The notes under the pieces: generated by a model
Database searches by the model: none
The model's input: only the letters and a program-made list of their open reading frames with translations
Told to the model about the DNA's origin: nothing
Shown here: positions 5,954 to 14,274 of the stretch, in pieces
Position numbering within the stretch: the stretch's first letter is position 1
Layout: each line of letters starts with the position of its first letter
Program-made: the position numbers and the translations under genes
From: Candidatus Hodarchaeota archaeon
GTDB taxonomy: Archaea > Asgardarchaeota > Heimdallarchaeia > Hodarchaeales > Hodarchaeaceae
Assembly (NCBI GenBank): GCA_016839785.1
Contig: JAEOTQ010000093.1
Span: forward strand, 1-27,610
Length of the DNA stretch: 27,610 nucleotides
Direction of reading: 5' to 3'

Positions 5954-7663
5954 ATGTTCCTCTCAAAAGTGAAATTGAAGAATTTTCGCAGTATTACATC
6001 TCTCACATTAAATAACCTTAAAAATTTGAATTGCTTTATCGGGGGACATAATTCTGGGAAAACGAATATTTTAGATGGAATATCCGTGTTCTGGGATCCT
6101 CAAATCCGTACTTATAGCCAACGACGGCAATTTCAAGCAGAAACGACCCCTATCACTGAAGATTTCGATCGTAGTATTTTATCGTATCTCGACACTCATC
6201 ATACCCATGGTTCATTTAATTTCAATCTTGATCCCCAACAGGGATTACAATTATGGAGAGAGAATGAGCTCTTAAAACAAAATTTTATCCAAACAGCGTT
6301 TAAATATAAGATTATTAATCCATTCGATGTTTACGACTTTTTCTTGGATGATTTGAGTTCCATTGTTAATCTTTCTCAAATTAGCTCATTAGAATTTAAC
6401 TTAACATTAAGTCCAAGCTTTCTAGAATTTCTAAACGAATCCTTACTTCTTCACTTACGATCTGAGGAGATTATAAAATACGAATCTGTAAATGTTCCTG
6501 TACCTATGATTAGAGACTCACTTGGGACAACTTTTATTCGTCGTTTTCATGATATCAATCTAGAATTTGATGAATTAAGGAATACATTGCTAAATATTCT
6601 TCAGGGGAAGGATTATCAATCTATAATTACAATCGAGAAATTTCTAAAAGATGTGATTGACCAAGATTTCGTTTTTCAGGTTGGGGGTACAGCACCTGAT
6701 GGCAAACCTCAGATTGATGTTACCATCGAACGGAGTTTCACCAGTCCTCTGTGGCGGATCTCGAGTGGCACTGTCCGATTGATTGCACTTGCATGTTTAC
6801 TAACATCAAATCCAGCAAATGGACAAATTATAATAGCAGATAATCCTGGAATCTTTTTACATCCAAGAGGAGAACGAGTACTAGCAAGAAAGTTTGAAGC
6901 CTTTGCCAAAGATAGGCAATTCTTTTTTTCCACGCATTCTTCTCGCTTATTAATTGGGCACGCCCATCTTGTGGAGCTGAAGAACGGCTGGACAAATATA
7001 GAACGAATAAAAGGCCGAAAATCCATGAGAAAGATTGTGAAGCTCCTAGGAATTAGACCCTCTGACTCACTTGGCTCAGACATTGTTGTTTTTGTTGAGG
7101 GAAGGACAGATTCCCGAGTATTCCGAGTGTTTGAAGATAAAATTTGCCGTTTCTTTCCAGAACTTTCAAATGTACGTGTATCTTATATTGGAGTGGGAGG
7201 ATGGACAAATATGAGGTATATTTTATCAATCGAATTATTGAAGAGTAAGTTTGTACGTAGTCGAGCTCTGGCGATAACTGACGGCGATATTGTAAGTACT
7301 AAAACCTATGAAAAATTAAAACAACATTGGCTAGATGTATTCTTGAAAGAGGGAGATTTTTTCTCTCTTAAAGAAGAATGTATAGAATCACTCTTTCTCA
7401 ATAATCCTGTTGTTTTTGATCGTTTAATGCAAGAAAAAGATAGAGCCCCTGCTCCTTTGTCAGAAATTGAAAAGTTTATTGAGCAGAGACGTAATCACGG
7501 ATTATCAGATAAGTCCATTACGCGAGAAATCGTCATTAAATACAATATTGGACGTAAATACTCTTCCTCGATTGCGGAAAGACTAGCTAGGCAGTTTAAA
7601 GATAAGGAAATTCCAAAATATTTAGTAGAATTTTACCAAACTCATATTCTACAATATGAATAA
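5954..7663 (+). CDS. OLD-family ABC-ATPase + TOPRIM nuclease
   Basis: LKNFRSI, Walker A GGHNSGKTNIL, signature ISSGT, Walker B-like IIIADNPGIFLHP, H-loop STHS. TOPRIM motifs VFVEGRTD, VGG, ITDGD and EECIE. Confidence 0.85.
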   Translation: MFLSKVKLKNFRSITSLTLNNLKNLNCFIGGHNSGKTNILDGISVFWDPQIRTYSQRRQFQAETTPITEDFDRSILSYLDTHHTHGSFNFNLDPQQGLQLWRENELLKQNFIQTAFKYKIINPFDVYDFFLDDLSSIVNLSQISSLEFNLTLSPSFLEFLNESLLLHLRSEEIIKYESVNVPVPMIRDSLGTTFIRRFHDINLEFDELRNTLLNILQGKDYQSIITIEKFLKDVIDQDFVFQVGGTAPDGKPQIDVTIERSFTSPLWRISSGTVRLIALACLLTSNPANGQIIIADNPGIFLHPRGERVLARKFEAFAKDRQFFFSTHSSRLLIGHAHLVELKNGWTNIERIKGRKSMRKIVKLLGIRPSDSLGSDIVVFVEGRTDSRVFRVFEDKICRFFPELSNVRVSYIGVGGWTNMRYILSIELLKSKFVRSRALAITDGDIVSTKTYEKLKQHWLDVFLKEGDFFSLKEECIESLFLNNPVVFDRLMQEKDRAPAPLSEIEKFIEQRRNHGLSDKSITREIVIKYNIGRKYSSSIAERLARQFKDKEIPKYLVEFYQTHILQYE

Positions 7664-7736
7664 GCATAAATTTCATGAAACTTACGAAACATCCACGAGT
7701 GAGATTTTTAATGCTATTAATTTTCAAATAGTAACT

Positions 7737-8453
7737 ATGAAGGTTTCTAGCATTTGGAAATTTAAAACCTTAATTTTTGTTATAGGGTTGATCCTAATTA
7801 ATAGCAATCTCTCACCAGCTATAGCGTCCATTACAAATATGCAGCTCACTTTAGAGGGAAATGTAATTGGTACCCTAACTGAAGCTGAAATTAAACTTGG
7901 ATTACCAACTACTACTGGTTGGGGAGGTTATCAAAATTCGCGGGGTACAATTACCCCAACTTCTCGATGGAAAGGTGTTCATATTCCTTTATTTCTCACC
8001 TCAATCCTTGAAGAACTAGAGTATAATGTTACCATTATGGCGCTAGATTATTCTATCAACCTCACGCGCGCTGAAGTGGAAGGAGGAATCCGAACTTTTG
8101 ATGAGGAAAATAATACTCTTACAACCAAGGCCATTCCAATTCTTGCTTATGAACAAAATGATAATACTGTTAAAGATGGTGATGGGCCTCTCAGACTCGT
8201 GTTCATTGGAGAAAATAATCTGAGTATCCTTACTTATGGACCACTCTGGGTAAAACAGGTTATAACATTACGTGTAACTCTCAATTCAGAGATAATTTTT
8301 AGTCTAACAAGCATAAGTGTTCCTGAATTCACTTCGAGTACTTCTGATGAAAATAATACTGAATCAACATCAGGAAATTCATTCGGAGTTACAATCCTTT
8401 TCCTCACCATTGCAACCCCTATGATAATTTGGATACGCAGAAAAAGAAGGTAA
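7737..8453 (+). CDS. Secreted, C-terminally anchored protein with a molybdopterin-oxidoreductase (sulfite oxidase)-like fold
   Basis: Signal peptide from ATG 7737. Motifs LTLEGNV, WKGV, ILAYEQN, GPLRLV and WVKQVITL, followed by an S/T linker, a TM helix and IRRKRR. The ORF-track start (7656) overlaps the upstream gene. Confidence 0.7.
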   Translation: MKVSSIWKFKTLIFVIGLILINSNLSPAIASITNMQLTLEGNVIGTLTEAEIKLGLPTTTGWGGYQNSRGTITPTSRWKGVHIPLFLTSILEELEYNVTIMALDYSINLTRAEVEGGIRTFDEENNTLTTKAIPILAYEQNDNTVKDGDGPLRLVFIGENNLSILTYGPLWVKQVITLRVTLNSEIIFSLTSISVPEFTSSTSDENNTESTSGNSFGVTILFLTIATPMIIWIRRKRR

Positions 8454-9651: not shown

Positions 9652-10326
9652 TTATTCAGGCCCAATGATATTATCATCATCACATGAATTATCTGTGAGA
9701 TTCCTATCGTATATATCTTCAAAGAAAATTAAATACGCTGTAACACTAATGGCCCCTATAAGGAATAATCTTGGGTCGGCCAACCAAGCTAAAACGGAAA
9801 TTGAGTAAAATAATCCCCGTATCCCGAATGACCAATGGTTCTGGGCACTTATTAAAGTATCCTTGGTAAAACGAAGACCGTTCATTCCACATACTTCAAA
9901 ATTTTGGGGACTGGAGGAAATTAAAATTGTAAATCGGACTAACATTCGAATTGCAAGTACAAAATTGAAGAGGCAAAAGACAAAAATTAACACAAGAACT
10001 ACCATTTGGATAAACCCAAGGGAGATATCAGTCCCCGTGATTAGCTCTTTAGAAAATATTTGATCATAAAAAGCAAGTAATAGTCCTAACAGAACTAATA
10101 GTGCGGAAATAAACGCAGAATTTGCCATTATTAGATTTCGTACAGCCTGAACAGCAATTAATGGAGAAGCTTTTACTCTTTCTTCGACATACTTTTCATA
10201 TACAAGGTTTAATGACCCTTTTCTTGATGTAGTCGGATGCTTAAGCCCATAAATTATCATTATACTATAAATAGTGATACAAAAGATGAAAACAATAAGA
10301 GCAGCAATATCAAGAGTTATTTCCAT
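9652..10326 (-). CDS. DUF599-like integral membrane protein
   Basis: IAVQAVRNLIMANSAFIS, FNFVLAIR, FGIRGLFYSI..LAW and 4-5 TM segments. Confidence 0.8.
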   Translation of the reverse strand: MEITLDIAALIVFIFCITIYSIMIIYGLKHPTTSRKGSLNLVYEKYVEERVKASPLIAVQAVRNLIMANSAFISALLVLLGLLLAFYDQIFSKELITGTDISLGFIQMVVLVLIFVFCLFNFVLAIRMLVRFTILISSSPQNFEVCGMNGLRFTKDTLISAQNHWSFGIRGLFYSISVLAWLADPRLFLIGAISVTAYLIFFEDIYDRNLTDNSCDDDNIIGPE

Positions 10327-10400
10327 AAGGGTAATCCTCGCAAACTGAATTTCTCATCGATATTTGACTGATGAGAAGAATATATTAATTTCATTTCTAT

Positions 10401-10610
10401 TTTAGAAACGGAAGCATCTACGGTTACTTTGTGTGCATGACGCACACTAAGACGTTGGAGAGGTGGTTATTTGTTAATCGAAGGTATTTACGTGGACTTT
10501 TGAGCGAGCCCCGCTCTAAAAGTGTTGTAGATGTGTCTGTTTGTTAATCGAAGGTGTTTAATGGGACTTTTGGCAACTCAGTTGCCACAAGATGTTGTAG
10601 ATGTGTTTGT
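10401..10610 (+). repeat. Three tandem 70-bp units with conserved flanks and variable palindromic cores; candidate structured ncRNA/ssDNA array
   Basis: Units at 10401-10470, 10471-10540 and 10541-10610 align without gaps. Units 2 and 3 match at 43/50 positions outside unit positions 31-50 but only 6/20 inside. Each core is its own inverted repeat. Confidence 0.9.
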
Positions 10611-10617
10611 TTTTTTT
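10610..10617 (+). terminator. T-run directly after the 70-bp array (possible archaeal terminator)
   Basis: TTTTTTTT follows the third unit. Oligo-T termination is established in archaea. Confidence 0.35.
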
Positions 10618-10728
10618 AGTATTACATTAGTAAATTTTTCAAGTAACAAATATTAATTTTCGTAAACGAAGCTTTTTCATATTTTTTCTCCTTCGATAAA
10701 TTTTGTATTGCTATTAGGTGTGAGTAAA

Positions 10729-11328
10729 ATGGATTTATTAGAGCCAATAGCTCGATCTTCAAATTTAATTAAGTTAAACGATTGCTTTATTATATTAATA
10801 GATGTACAAGAAGTTTTTTTAAAAAAAGGTTTGACTAATTCTGAAATTCAGACCTTTATTTTAAAACTAAAACATTTAATTAGAGTAGCTCAAGTTTTAG
10901 AAATCCCCATCATTATTACAGTAGAGGATATCAAGAATAATGGGTCAATTCCCGTGGATCTTTCTACAATGCTTCCAGCTGATTTTTGGATTTACGATAA
11001 ATTTATTTACAGCTGCTGGGGTCAGGAGGACATACAAAATGCTATTAAAAATATTGGTAAAACGGTTGCTGTAATGTGTGGACTTGAAACTGATATTTGT
11101 GTTTGCCAAACATCTATAGATCTACTTTCAAACAAGTTTAAGGTTGTTATTCTCAGTGATATCACATTCTCTAGGAATAAAAATGAACATGAAATTGGAT
11201 TAAAAAGGATGGAGAACAGCGGAGCGATTATTTCTACGTTGAAAACTTGGCAGGAAGAAATTGCCGGAGGGATTAAAACAGAAATTAATTTAAAATTGCG
11301 GAAACAAAATTTGTCGGATATTCCTTGA
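10729..11328 (+). CDS. Isochorismatase/cysteine hydrolase family protein
   Basis: Triad candidates IDVQ (Asp), YDKFIYS (Lys) and GLETDICV (Cys). AGGTGTGAG lies upstream of ATG 10729. Confidence 0.9.
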   Translation: MDLLEPIARSSNLIKLNDCFIILIDVQEVFLKKGLTNSEIQTFILKLKHLIRVAQVLEIPIIITVEDIKNNGSIPVDLSTMLPADFWIYDKFIYSCWGQEDIQNAIKNIGKTVAVMCGLETDICVCQTSIDLLSNKFKVVILSDITFSRNKNEHEIGLKRMENSGAIISTLKTWQEEIAGGIKTEINLKLRKQNLSDIP

Positions 11329-11463
11329 CAAAATTGACTGTTTACGAAAATTTCAACTCCTTTTAACCCATACAATATCCATTTTCCAAAAGAAATATTT
11401 GGGTTGAGTTAATATCCTAATACAATCAATATTTTGGTTAAATGACAGAAGGTTGGACAGATA

Positions 11464-12387
11464 ATGGAAATCGGCGCAACTTGTGAATATTCCCCTCTAA
11501 AAAAAGTACTTTTATTCCGTCCAGGAAGAGAGATTGAGAAGATAACGATTAAAACGTACAAAGAACTGTCCTTTAGAGATATTGCTTACTGGCGTCGATT
11601 TCAGCAAGAGCATGATCAATTTAGTGATCTATTAAAAGATGAACAAATTGACGTCACTTTTCTCAATGATTTGTTGAAAAATGAAGATTTGTCTCTATTA
11701 GATCCTAATCTTGTCTACATGCGAGATGCAGGGGCTATTGTAGACTCGGGATATATTCAAATGCGCATGGCTTCACAAGTTAGAGGGCCAGAACCAGTTA
11801 TTGTAGCTAAAGCCCTAAGATCCCTTGGAATTCAAGAATCGCATGTCACTACTTCTCCAGGGTTTTTAGAGGGGGGCGATCTTGTTTTTCCAGATGAAGA
11901 AACCTTAATGGTAGGGTATGGGACGCGTACAAATGAAGAAGGAGCGCTACAGTTAGTTACTAGCCTTTTGAATACTAATCTGAAGACAGTTATACTCGTT
12001 CCTTTACCTTCTTGGCGAGTTCATTTAGACGGAGGTTTAATGTTCGTTGATAAAGATCTGTTATTATATCATCCCATGTCAGTTACTTCATTTCCAGCAA
12101 GAATTTATCGTAAAAATGAACCAGTGGAAATTTCGCCTCTGATGGAAATCCTAGATGATAAATTTAGTCCTGAAAAGATTCCTATAACGGATAACGAACT
12201 ATATTTATTTGGAGCAAATGTAATCTGTTTAAATAGAAGGAAATGCGTAGTTTATGAGTGGAATGAACGGATTATTAATGAACTCGTACAACGTGGGGTA
12301 GAGGCTCTTCCAATTCAAGGTAGTGAACTAGCTCGAGGAGGTGGAGGCCCTCACTGTATGACTCTACCAATTCTAAGAAAAAAATAA
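11464..12387 (+). CDS. Amidinotransferase/arginine deiminase superfamily (pentein) enzyme, short form
   Basis: EYSPLKKVLL..PG.E, NLVYMRD, FLEGGD, RTNEEG, HLD, SELARGGGGPHCMTLPILR (Cys-His-Asp set). Confidence 0.9.
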   Translation: MEIGATCEYSPLKKVLLFRPGREIEKITIKTYKELSFRDIAYWRRFQQEHDQFSDLLKDEQIDVTFLNDLLKNEDLSLLDPNLVYMRDAGAIVDSGYIQMRMASQVRGPEPVIVAKALRSLGIQESHVTTSPGFLEGGDLVFPDEETLMVGYGTRTNEEGALQLVTSLLNTNLKTVILVPLPSWRVHLDGGLMFVDKDLLLYHPMSVTSFPARIYRKNEPVEISPLMEILDDKFSPEKIPITDNELYLFGANVICLNRRKCVVYEWNERIINELVQRGVEALPIQGSELARGGGGPHCMTLPILRKK

Positions 12388-12414
12388 AACCCTTTTGTAC
12401 CTCTCAAGGAAACT

Positions 12415-13173
12415 ATGAGACACATTGAAGTTTGTTTAACATTTGATTTTGATGCAGAAAGCGTCCAAGTTAGACAAAAAGAAGAACAAGGGAGAGTTTC
12501 AAAGGGTCAATTTGCTGTTAGGCGAGGTATCCCCCGAATATTAGCCCTTCTGAAGAAGTATGGAATAAAAGCAACCTTTTTCACATGTGGATGGGTTGCA
12601 GAAAAATATCCTGAACTTGTCAATAAAATAGTGGACGACGATCATGAATTAGGAGCTCATGGATACCTTCATGAGTATTTTGATCAATTATCGACTCAGG
12701 AAGAAGAAACTGTTATTGAAAAAATGACAACTCCTTTATTAGATTTCAGTGATAAAATCAAAGGCTTTCGAGCTCCATATTGGCAATTATCCCCAAATAC
12801 GCTCAAATTAGTTTCCGAAGCAGGGTATATATACGATAGTAGTCTATTTTCTGATGATAGACCGTATTTCATTCCATCTTTAAACTTATTAGAATTCCCT
12901 GTAGAATGGTTCTTAGACGATTGGGTAATATTTGAAATCCATCAACATTCTCCTACCTCAGCGCTTGATATTTGGAAATCACAATTTGATTCTTTCATGG
13001 AAATTGAAGATATTTCTACCAATCGTCGTGTATTTACCCTTACGTGTCACCCTGCGGCTATTGGTCATGTTTATCGATTAAATGTACTGGATAAATTGAT
13101 TAATCATATGAAAATGAATAACGTGACCTTTCAGAAGATGGGTGATGTAGCGGATCAAATTATCAACGAATAA
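12415..13173 (+). CDS. Polysaccharide deacetylase (CE4), PuuE/HpPgdA-like subgroup
   Basis: LTFDFD, GIPRILALL, ATFF, HGYLH, GFRAPYW, YDSSL, TCHP. Confidence 0.88.
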   Translation: MRHIEVCLTFDFDAESVQVRQKEEQGRVSKGQFAVRRGIPRILALLKKYGIKATFFTCGWVAEKYPELVNKIVDDDHELGAHGYLHEYFDQLSTQEEETVIEKMTTPLLDFSDKIKGFRAPYWQLSPNTLKLVSEAGYIYDSSLFSDDRPYFIPSLNLLEFPVEWFLDDWVIFEIHQHSPTSALDIWKSQFDSFMEIEDISTNRRVFTLTCHPAAIGHVYRLNVLDKLINHMKMNNVTFQKMGDVADQIINE

Positions 13174-13192
13174 TCTCTATTCCGAAAACAGG

Positions 13193-14158
13193 TCACAATA
13201 AGGAGCTTTTTCGGTTCACGAGAGAAACACCAATTATGATTAAGATTGTGGCTAATACATGGGCTAGGGGATCCACAATTTCCTTAAGTAAAATGGCTGA
13301 AAGAGAGACCCCAAAAATTGGAACCATATTTTGAAATATCGCAGCTCTAACTGCAGTTAGTCGTTTTACTCCTTCAATAAAGAACCAGTAGCCAATTAAC
13401 GTGGAAAATATAACAAGATATGAAACCCCCCACCAAACACGACCAGGTATCTGAAAAAACAAAACTGGATTGATATATTCAGGATTCAGAATCATAGTGA
13501 CAGGTATAGTAGTTATTAATCCGTAAAGGGATACCCAAGTTATGAGATAAAGTGATGTTATCTGATCCTTATGTGTTTCCAAAAAGATTTTTGAGGCAAC
13601 AGTGTATACTGCATAGGATAATGCTGCAATAATTATTAGTAGATTACCTAGAAAGCGATCCTCGGATATAATGTTTGGTGTAAGACCAATCACGAGCAAA
13701 ATTCCGATGAAAGCAAGTGTCGTACCTAAGATGATATTTCTGTTAATTTTCTCAATTTTAACTACAAGACATGAGATAATAACAACCATTATAGGATTAA
13801 CGGATAATAATACACTAGCATCACTAGCTGCTGTAAAAATCTGGCCAAATAACGTAGTAGCTTGATGAACTGTAACAGAAATAAACCCCATGAATCCTAA
13901 AGCCTTCCAATGCGTTCTGGCAAATTTAAAGTTCAATGATCCCTCTTTAAAATTTAAGATAAGAAGAAATGGCCATATGACTAGAAAATAACGAAGCAAT
14001 GTTATTATCATTGGTGGTACTGTTGCTCCCCCGACCTCTTCTGAAACTAACCACCGTCCAAGTGGCCAAGTGCCTCCCCAAATCAGTGCAGTCATAATTA
14101 ATAGAATATATGCAGTAAATTCGGATTTTCTCTCAGATTCTTGTAGATAGCTGGACAT
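13193..14158 (-). CDS. EamA/DMT family transporter
   Basis: LIWGGTW, ASDASVLLSVNPI, GNLLIIIAALSYAVYTV, RAAIFQNMVPIFG..LLKE and about 10 TMs. Start placed at ATG 14158 (ORF track gives 14239). Confidence 0.9.
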   Translation of the reverse strand: MSSYLQESERKSEFTAYILLIMTALIWGGTWPLGRWLVSEEVGGATVPPMIITLLRYFLVIWPFLLILNFKEGSLNFKFARTHWKALGFMGFISVTVHQATTLFGQIFTAASDASVLLSVNPIMVVIISCLVVKIEKINRNIILGTTLAFIGILLVIGLTPNIISEDRFLGNLLIIIAALSYAVYTVASKIFLETHKDQITSLYLITWVSLYGLITTIPVTMILNPEYINPVLFFQIPGRVWWGVSYLVIFSTLIGYWFFIEGVKRLTAVRAAIFQNMVPIFGVSLSAILLKEIVDPLAHVLATILIIIGVSLVNRKSSLL

Positions 14159-14274
14159 CTTCAAATTGATCATAAAAAAAAATTCATTAATACTATTCTC
14201 TTTCTCGCTTCTTCCATACACATAATTGAAATTTCCCAAGGGTTTTTCGATTATGAAAAGTGGGTTAAAAGAAC

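Follow-up and report, generated by a model that had tools for sequence, protein, structure and literature searches.

CRISPR arrays consist of conserved repeats, between which lie unique spacers that are not palindromic and are about as long as the repeats or longer, and are accompanied by cas genes. REP/BIME sequences and the ends of IS200/IS605 elements are multi-copy sequences that are recognised as folded single strands, with a Y1 HUH transposase as the enzyme involved; REPs carry the tetranucleotide GTAG, and to our knowledge neither REP/RAYT systems nor IS200/IS605 elements make a target duplication. MITEs (miniature inverted-repeat transposable elements) occur in several copies per genome, with terminal inverted repeats, a target-site duplication, and a related autonomous IS. 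SINEs lack inverted termini; they are built of multimeric structured-RNA modules with an oligo-T run and an A-rich 3′ tail, duplicate about 10 bp of their target, and make use of a reverse transcriptase. Tandem structured-RNA repeats followed by a terminator are found in type III toxin-antitoxin systems (ToxI-like), H/ACA RNAs have an ACA 3′ of each hairpin, and C/D RNAs have a C box (RUGAUGA) and a D box (CUGA). The attC sites of integrons are described, in an excerpt of PMC5027507, as having R″/R′ boxes (GTTRRRY/RYYYAAC), a conserved AAC triplet, and a variable terminal structure. An excerpt of PMC9668308 reports that integrons are enriched in Asgardarchaeota, with almost 8% of genomes, and that short ORF cassettes lie between the attC sites, whether IntI is present or not.

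The array described here is located in a window of 27.6 kb (the whole stretch of DNA that was analysed) and is built of tandem units with conserved flanks and self-complementary cores. By sequence comparison, it is the body of a recently acquired, non-coding insertion of 258 bp. The insertion is bordered by a target-site duplication, a feature absent from the original prediction, i.e. a first reading made from the letters of the window. The features of the locus are summarised in Table 1.

Table 1. Features of the insertion, the hairpin array and the two adjoining genes (window coordinates)
Feature	Coordinates	Strand	Remarks
DUF599 membrane-protein gene	9652..10326	-	Pfam DUF599, E = 1.1e-23; upstream region took the insertion
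Left duplication copy, ATATTAATTT	10382..10391		10 bp; in the TATA-like block (AT-rich, conserved) of the divergent promoter
Inserted element (by sequence comparison)	10392..10649	+	258 bp, non-coding, 37% G+C, no terminal inverted repeats
Small terminal hairpin, TTTCTA-TTT-TAGAAA	10394..10408	+	Left end of the element, read from the sequence
Unit 1	10401..10470	+	Core hairpin GTGTGC-ATGAC-GCACAC, 10431-10447
Unit 2	10471..10540	+	Core hairpin GAGCG-AGCCC-CGCTC, 10502-10516
Unit 3	10541..10610	+	Core hairpin TGGCAAC-TCA-GTTGCCA, 10571-10587
T8 run	10610..10617	+	Candidate archaeal oligo-T terminator
Right tail of the element	10618..10649	+	No significant similarity to the units
Right duplication copy, ATATTAATTT	10650..10659		10 bp, direct repeat of the left copy
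Isochorismatase-family gene	10729..11328	+	Pfam Isochorismatase, E = 1.4e-23; first gene downstream of the element

The array and its insertion site

A gap-free alignment resolved the array into three contiguous units of 70 nt, as had been predicted, and both of the predicted counts of flank identity were reproduced. Outside unit positions 31-50, our own count on the alignment gives 43 of 50 identical positions for units 2 and 3 (86%) and 31 of 50 for units 1 and 2 (62%). The program TRF reports a period of 70 nt across 10449-10612, with 2.3 copies and 77% matches. All three cores are perfect hairpins of 15-17 nt, symmetric around unit position 39, and they lie exactly at the predicted coordinates. 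Their sequences are unrelated; units 2 and 3 agree at 4 of the 18 positions of the core (own count on the alignment). The conserved portion of each unit thus amounts to about 53 nt, and the variable, palindromic portion to 15-17 nt. In six of six core pairs, both sides are altered between units. In a symmetric structure of 24 pairs, drawn by hand, 84.7% of the cells pair, versus 34.7-58.0% in slid registers, i.e. with the partner moved by 1-3 columns.

The G+C content of the cores is 53-80%, compared with 36% for the genome and 25-31% for the native flanks on either side. The genome contains no second copies of the cores with up to two mismatches, except for one chance match of a 15-mer. Five further arrays with a TRF period of 40-120 nt were found in the genome (six in all); they have periods of 69 or 102 nt and unrelated units. 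Within the window, TRF also reports an 18-nt tandem repeat at 190-251 (3.4 copies, 97% identity, score 117), which is located inside an open-ended ORF (2-361). The right tail of the element does not represent a fourth unit, as 992 of 1000 shuffles score as well or better. The TATA-like sequence TATATTAA at 10381, ahead of the array, and the T8 run behind it were both present as predicted. The T8 run, which on general grounds is a candidate terminator, is the first run of at least five T that the element has on its + strand. A further one, a T5, is located at 10635, and the - strand has no run of this length.

The insertion was delineated by comparison with filled and empty sites. A contig of 266 nt from run X3, a metagenome of another study, joins position 10381 straight to position 10650 with two mismatches and continues into the isochorismatase gene. 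The junction skips 268 nt, and 10 letters fit either side. The contigs of the public runs were built on words of 31 letters; because the 10-nt repeat is shorter than these words, the join is unlikely to be an assembly collapse, and we read the contig as the empty-site allele of a near-identical strain. Run X2 contains the array independently (contig 9991-10535, 0 differences), and the contigs of runs X4 and X5 stop short of it. The site is likewise uninterrupted in four genomes of the same genus (G002, G014, G019, and G004), upstream of DUF599 orthologues with 69-77% identity. In these four genomes, the conserved AT-rich block runs through as ...GAATATATTAATTTTCGTAAA.... In pairwise comparison with G002 and G014, the left flank aligns as far as relative position 95 and the right flank from position 86 onwards; the 10 nt covered by both alignments are those of the duplication. 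The columns of the left copy are invariant in the five-genome alignment and are the most conserved stretch of the intergenic region.

Since filled and empty alleles occur in near-identical strains and the congeners are empty, the empty state is ancestral. The presence/absence polymorphism between near-identical strains also implies that the insertion is recent. The 10-bp duplication indicates a staggered cut followed by fill-in. The duplicated block itself looks like a TATA element shared by the two divergent genes. Between this block and the DUF599 start codon, an inverted repeat CTCATC...GATGAG is found (10353-10375), which is partly conserved in G002 and G014.

These alleles bear directly on the regulatory role that had been proposed for the array with respect to the downstream hydrolase cluster. 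The isochorismatase gene is followed by an arginine-deiminase-like gene and then by a polysaccharide-deacetylase gene, and the array is located upstream of this operon on the same strand, the arrangement expected if it were a cis-regulatory leader or a tandem riboswitch for the three genes. Such a leader should also be conserved together with the genes that it regulates. However, the same operon adjoins the empty site in the near-identical strain, and the 258-bp block is missing at the site there as well as in the four congeners. In addition, the T8 run and 110 nt with the second TATA copy lie between the array and the isochorismatase start codon, the regions upstream of the isochorismatase orthologues at 10 loci of the same genus are dissimilar by eye, and no Rfam family matched. 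A leader function is thus extremely improbable. The candidate of a native leader of the hydrolase genes was rejected, as it is contradicted by an empty-site allele with the downstream isochorismatase gene present.

Two further features of the neighbourhood were observed. First, a block of four genes is located between the DUF599 gene and a LysE-type gene (10700-14270). It contains the isochorismatase-family gene, the arginine-deiminase-like gene, the polysaccharide deacetylase gene, and an EamA transporter gene on the - strand. In G002, the orthologues lie side by side in divergent orientation, with nothing in between (81% identity for ProDH, 74% for LysE), which makes the four-gene block an accessory insertion of its own at this spot, older than the element. 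Second, the stretch 5954-8453 contains a gene for an OLD-family nuclease (AAA_15/AAA_21 ATPase and OLD-like TOPRIM). Its stop codon overlaps an ORF of 265 aa without a Pfam match, and the two genes, about 2 kb from the element, are a candidate defence system.

Chance expectation and folding of the hairpins

The array is real and non-random. For comparison, perfect stems of at least 5 bp with a loop of 3 or 5 nt were counted across the genome, and 10,654 of 4,031,973 positions (0.264%) are centres of such hairpins. With the 70-nt phase already set by the flanks, three in-phase hairpins would be expected by chance with a probability of about 70 x p^3 = 1e-6 (own arithmetic). If the flanks are ignored, the genome contains four equally spaced hairpin triplets versus about six expected. 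Conserved flanks accompany one of these four triplets, i.e. the array, and the other three are without them.

The pairing of the flanks is modestly above chance and weakly significant. In the symmetric register, and with G-T counted, 14, 16, and 16 of 22 flank columns pair in units 1, 2, and 3, respectively, and the observed values were reached by 919, 168, and 254 of 20,000 shuffles. In unit 2, 15 of 21 flank columns pair even in a register slid by +2. The flank pairing behind the interrupted stem of about 51 nt that had been proposed is weaker than was implied.

The RNA energies of the symmetric hairpin on the + strand are -12.9, -9.2, and -11.9 kcal/mol for units 1-3, and the respective values for the - strand are -6.7, -3.3, and -1.0 kcal/mol. 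When DNA parameters are used, neither strand of units 2 and 3 forms a stable extended stem, and the short cores alone fold there; on the + strand of unit 1, the stem reaches a weak -5.0 kcal/mol. The folding z-scores of the single units on the + strand are modest, ranging from -0.87 to -2.29. The ratios of G.T to A.C mismatches are 5/1, 6/2, and 7/0 for units 1-3, in agreement with folding of the + strand. As the flanks are G+T-rich anyway (T62 G44 A40 C13), the excess of G.T alone is no sign of selection.

These values modify two claims of the original prediction. The first was that the fold works only on the + strand: the RNA energies are indeed clearly better on this strand, but the G.T excess can be explained by the composition. 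The second was that the retention of structure through the turnover of sequence reveals selection. Inside the array, the idea that the fold was kept despite sequence turnover is reasonable, because the tips have been replaced and are nevertheless self-complementary in the same register; the G.T excess, however, is not a proof of it.

Palindromic tips can also stay perfect without selection, via template switching in quasi-palindromes. This mutational route, i.e. template-switch correction of quasi-palindromes, may account for the perfect tips, of which there are three sequences only. It is part of an alternative explanation, according to which the insertion is functionless filler: a staggered break would have taken up a decayed palindromic repeat block, whose tips would be perfect owing to correction and not to selection. 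The orphan state of the array, which has neither a partner gene nor a family, perfect short inner palindromes within decayed outer arms, and weakly significant flank pairing would fit this origin. In contrast, the sharp boundary between flanks with 86% identity and unrelated cores (4/18) is hard to obtain via gradual decay, the centre is the same in all three tips, and the units are too diverged to stem from the insertion event itself. We regard captured filler as a rather unlikely explanation.

Searches for further copies and for partner genes

With BLAST, the array and the element detected nothing but themselves in their own genome. A covariance model, R1, was built from the three units with 24 pairs, and it retrieved the three units alone from this genome. 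The best BLAST match in 60 relatives, with an E value of 0.0067, is one of 22 nt to the linker between units (G027 and G037, see below), and the other short matches look mostly coding by eye. In 100 relatives, R1 gave matches with E values of up to 1 in six genomes (best 0.0252), which is at chance level for the number searched. In 150 genomes of the phylum, which overlap with the 100, four had matches with E values of up to 0.1 (best 0.0097), again at chance level. BLAST searches of phage and plasmid collections yielded no match.

Viral contigs were scanned with several patterns. A 15-mer pattern was found at 52 loci, none of which extends past 21 nt. Two strict unit patterns gave 0 matches, and a loose pattern gave 32 single matches, on which R1 scored at most 17.6 bits. 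The left end and the arm of unit 1 had 0 matches, and the right end had one, which spans about 21 nt and is located in a giant-virus bin among unrelated sequence. The pattern scan of genome contigs returned three single 20-nt matches, in bacterial bins, and that of metagenome contigs returned one, in an apparent coding region (by eye). In two genomes of the same class, G027 (L008, ~1501-1522) and G037 (L009), a sequence of 22 nt matches the linker between units, TTATTTGTTAATCGAAGG..., at 95%. It is apparently intergenic, has E values of 0.007-0.009 per genome and 14-18 bits with the unit model, and is probably due to chance.

All foreign matches that were inspected are short and at chance level, and nothing similar was detected in any of the collections searched. 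The original prediction had held that a lack of further copies or covariation in relatives would count against it; none were found by BLAST or with R1 in the own genome and in the Asgard samples, and the evidence for covariation is limited to the three units among themselves. A literature search on Asgard MITEs, on Asgard hairpin or tandem-repeat ncRNAs, and on archaeal MITEs at TATA boxes retrieved nothing relevant; the excerpt of PMC13343696 gives IS counts only.

The Rfam search that had been proposed was run on 9800-11200 with E values of up to 10, and no family was matched: only SNORD52 (18.2 bits, E = 0.85) and WT1-AS_5 (12.4 bits) were returned, both of which we take as chance. The SNORD52 match is located at 10845-10917 on the - strand, antisense in the isochorismatase coding region, and contains C- and D-like boxes; the gathering score of the family is 45, and the match is probably accidental. 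The inter-hairpin linkers contain no ACA. A C box (RTGATGA) is missing on either strand, and a D box (CTGA) on the + strand.

Genes for mobilising or processing enzymes were searched for in the window and in the assembly, which is 84.5% complete. The scanned ORFs of the window encode no transposase, integrase, or HUH domain (Pfam) and no Cas-named Pfam family, and the window has no tRNAs. In the assembly, there were 0 matches to the reverse transcriptase family PF00078 and 0 to the Y1 transposase family PF01797 (Y1_Tnp), and a search of the genome for Piwi-domain genes was negative. The linked integrase, HUH, or RAYT gene suggested by the original prediction is therefore missing among the window ORFs, with no Y1_Tnp in the assembly. 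The genome also has a full-length actin gene (G000:C4:22817-23923; 440 bits), which has no counterpart in the control genomes (0/14) and is in keeping with an Asgard archaeon.

The ends of the element were analysed by alignment and by reading shifted boundaries. Apart from the duplication, the element bears no mark of a known mobile family. Terminal inverted repeats are absent, irrespective of how many of the 10 bp are assigned to the target. The best local alignment between the left end and the reverse-complemented right end covers 15 nt with three mismatches, is non-terminal, and involves the duplicated target. No second pairing of the ends (18-mers with up to three mismatches) was found in the genome, and its five DDE_Tnp_1 transposase loci have at most 11 nt in common with the element. 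The ends read ...GTAACAA on the + strand and ...AGAAATG on the - strand, without an A-rich tail on either. One copy cannot demonstrate mobility beyond a single event.

These results have to be weighed for two further explanations. In the first, the array is a free-standing small RNA gene that is useful to the host and arrived by horizontal insertion. Its product would be a three-hairpin precursor of about 205 nt that is cut to hairpins of about 70 nt, or a protein-binding decoy. Several observations are compatible with this: the extended stems are stable solely as + strand RNA, the stems are G+C-rich in an A+T-rich setting, the tips covary, a TATA-like block is located about 25 nt before the foot of the unit 1 hairpin and T8 follows unit 3, and the genome has a gene with an RNase III-like domain (G000:C212:1830-2111; 39.4 bits, just above the cut-off). 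However, the array is dispensable in a near-identical strain and absent from all relatives searched, it has no Rfam match, no C or D box on the + strand, no C box on the - strand, and no ACA after the hairpins. No Piwi-domain gene accompanies it in the genome, and the folding z-scores on the + strand, given above, are modest. We consider such a small RNA gene unlikely.

In the second explanation, the units are structure-specific recombination sites in single-stranded DNA, similar to attC or REP, with conserved feet as protein sites and a recombinase that is encoded elsewhere. The combination of a conserved foot and a free, paired tip resembles the variable terminal structure of attC given in the excerpt of PMC5027507, integrons are enriched in Asgardarchaeota according to that of PMC9668308, and the arms contain GTAG/CTAC tetranucleotides. 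In contrast, the attC boxes GTTRRRY and RYYYAAC have 0 matches in 10392-10649 (both strands are covered, as the motifs are reverse complements of each other), the units abut at 70 bp without cassettes, and the extended DNA stems are unstable in units 2 and 3. Moreover, the array is single-copy, the assembly lacks a Y1 transposase, and the window lacks an integrase gene. The attC- or REP-like nature that had been suggested is thus very unlikely. The suggestion of an IS200/605 end fares no better, as the 10-bp duplication does not fit and no Y1 transposase was found.

Origin of the element and comparison with known classes

The hairpin units are probably the cargo of a small, non-coding element that was recently inserted, whereby the module itself evolved elsewhere under a constraint to fold. 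Between the divergent genes for DUF599 and isochorismatase, the element would have entered the conserved TATA-like block, which is AT-rich, and a staggered cut at entry would have led to the duplication of the 10 bp ATATTAATTT. The units have diverged far beyond the strain age of the insertion, so that the array should long predate its arrival here; the 70-nt module probably evolved for a long time in an unsampled genome, a plasmid, or a virus. The missing inverted termini, the ends without a second copy in the genome, the lack of sequence shared with the DDE_Tnp_1 loci, the enzymes not found in the window and the assembly, and the modest flank pairing speak against this interpretation. The sharp boundary between foot and tip, and the replacement of tips that are still paired and have the same centre, argue for a folding constraint in the source lineage. 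A conserved hairpin base with a free tip is the pattern expected of a protein that recognises the foot of a folded single strand.

The duplication may also have consequences for transcription. In archaea, the spacing between the TATA box and the start is about 25 nt. The left TATA copy retains its native upstream side for the + strand, and a start is predicted at about 10408-10412, where unit 1 has its foot. Transcription would terminate at the T8 run, and the predicted product is a three-hairpin RNA of about 205 nt. The right TATA copy retains its native upstream side for the - strand, and because this strand has no T5 or longer run, a long DUF599 leader is possible. Both neighbouring genes would keep a TATA copy but gain a new upstream (BRE-side) sequence from the ends of the element.

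A more far-reaching interpretation is that this is a new kind of archaeal mobile element, with neither inverted termini nor a gene of its own. TATA boxes would be its target, and the promoter duplicated in this way would drive transcription of the cargo: 70-nt hairpin RNAs joined to a multimer, with feet that are conserved, cassette-like variable tips, and an oligo-T terminator of its own. We regard this as quite improbable. At the same low level of confidence, its logic would be like that of a SINE or a promoter trap, and the present insertion would be the first one caught in an Asgard archaeon. If the element were truly mobile, it would represent a type of small Asgard insertion outside all the families tested, and with the core promoter as the target, each insertion would rewire two genes at once. 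The coexistence of filled and empty alleles in nature offers a ready comparison for promoter use. With one copy known and no enzyme to go with it, the element is an anecdote for now.

The hairpin-repeat element that we favour as the explanation of the locus can be compared with the described classes feature by feature. Like a MITE, it is small (258 bp), non-coding, and located at an intergenic promoter site, it has a target-site duplication and a presence/absence polymorphism, and it would fold into hairpins if transcribed. Unlike a MITE, it has no terminal inverted repeats, is single-copy as judged by BLAST and R1, and its ends match no DDE_Tnp_1 locus. With attC sites it shares an imperfect hairpin with a conserved foot, a tip that is variable and yet paired, and strands that fold unequally. 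An attC hairpin has extrahelical bases, an unpaired central spacer, and a variable terminal structure; the units have a variable paired tip and internal mismatches, and no defined extrahelical bases could be assigned in them. It differs from attC arrays by the lack of cassettes, as the 70-bp period leaves no ORF between units, by the lack of IntI in the window, and by the instability of the extended DNA stem in units 2 and 3.

The clustered imperfect palindromes and the GTAG/CTAC in the arms are reminiscent of REP/BIME sequences with RAYT and of IS200/IS605 ends, but there is one copy, a 10-bp duplication, and no Y1_Tnp in the assembly. Tandem hairpin units followed by T8 as a candidate terminator are also typical of ToxI-like arrays; however, the element came with no toxin gene, and the downstream gene for an isochorismatase-family hydrolase is also present at the empty site. 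The description of the array as the inverse of CRISPR holds: the proportions of repeat and spacer are inverted (about 53 versus 15-17 nt), the "spacers" are palindromic, and there are only three units. SINEs resemble the element in the lack of inverted termini, the 10-bp duplication, the repeated hairpin modules, and the oligo-T run. In contrast to SINEs, it has no A-rich 3′ tail, PF00078 has 0 matches, and the element begins upstream of the predicted transcript start.

Taken together, and as far as sequence features can tell, the element fails the tested defining features of attC sites, REPs, IS200/605 ends, MITEs, CRISPR, and SINEs, and the motifs of H/ACA and C/D box RNAs are absent. Compared with these systems, the description that suits it best is that of an orphan hairpin-repeat element, non-coding and recently inserted.
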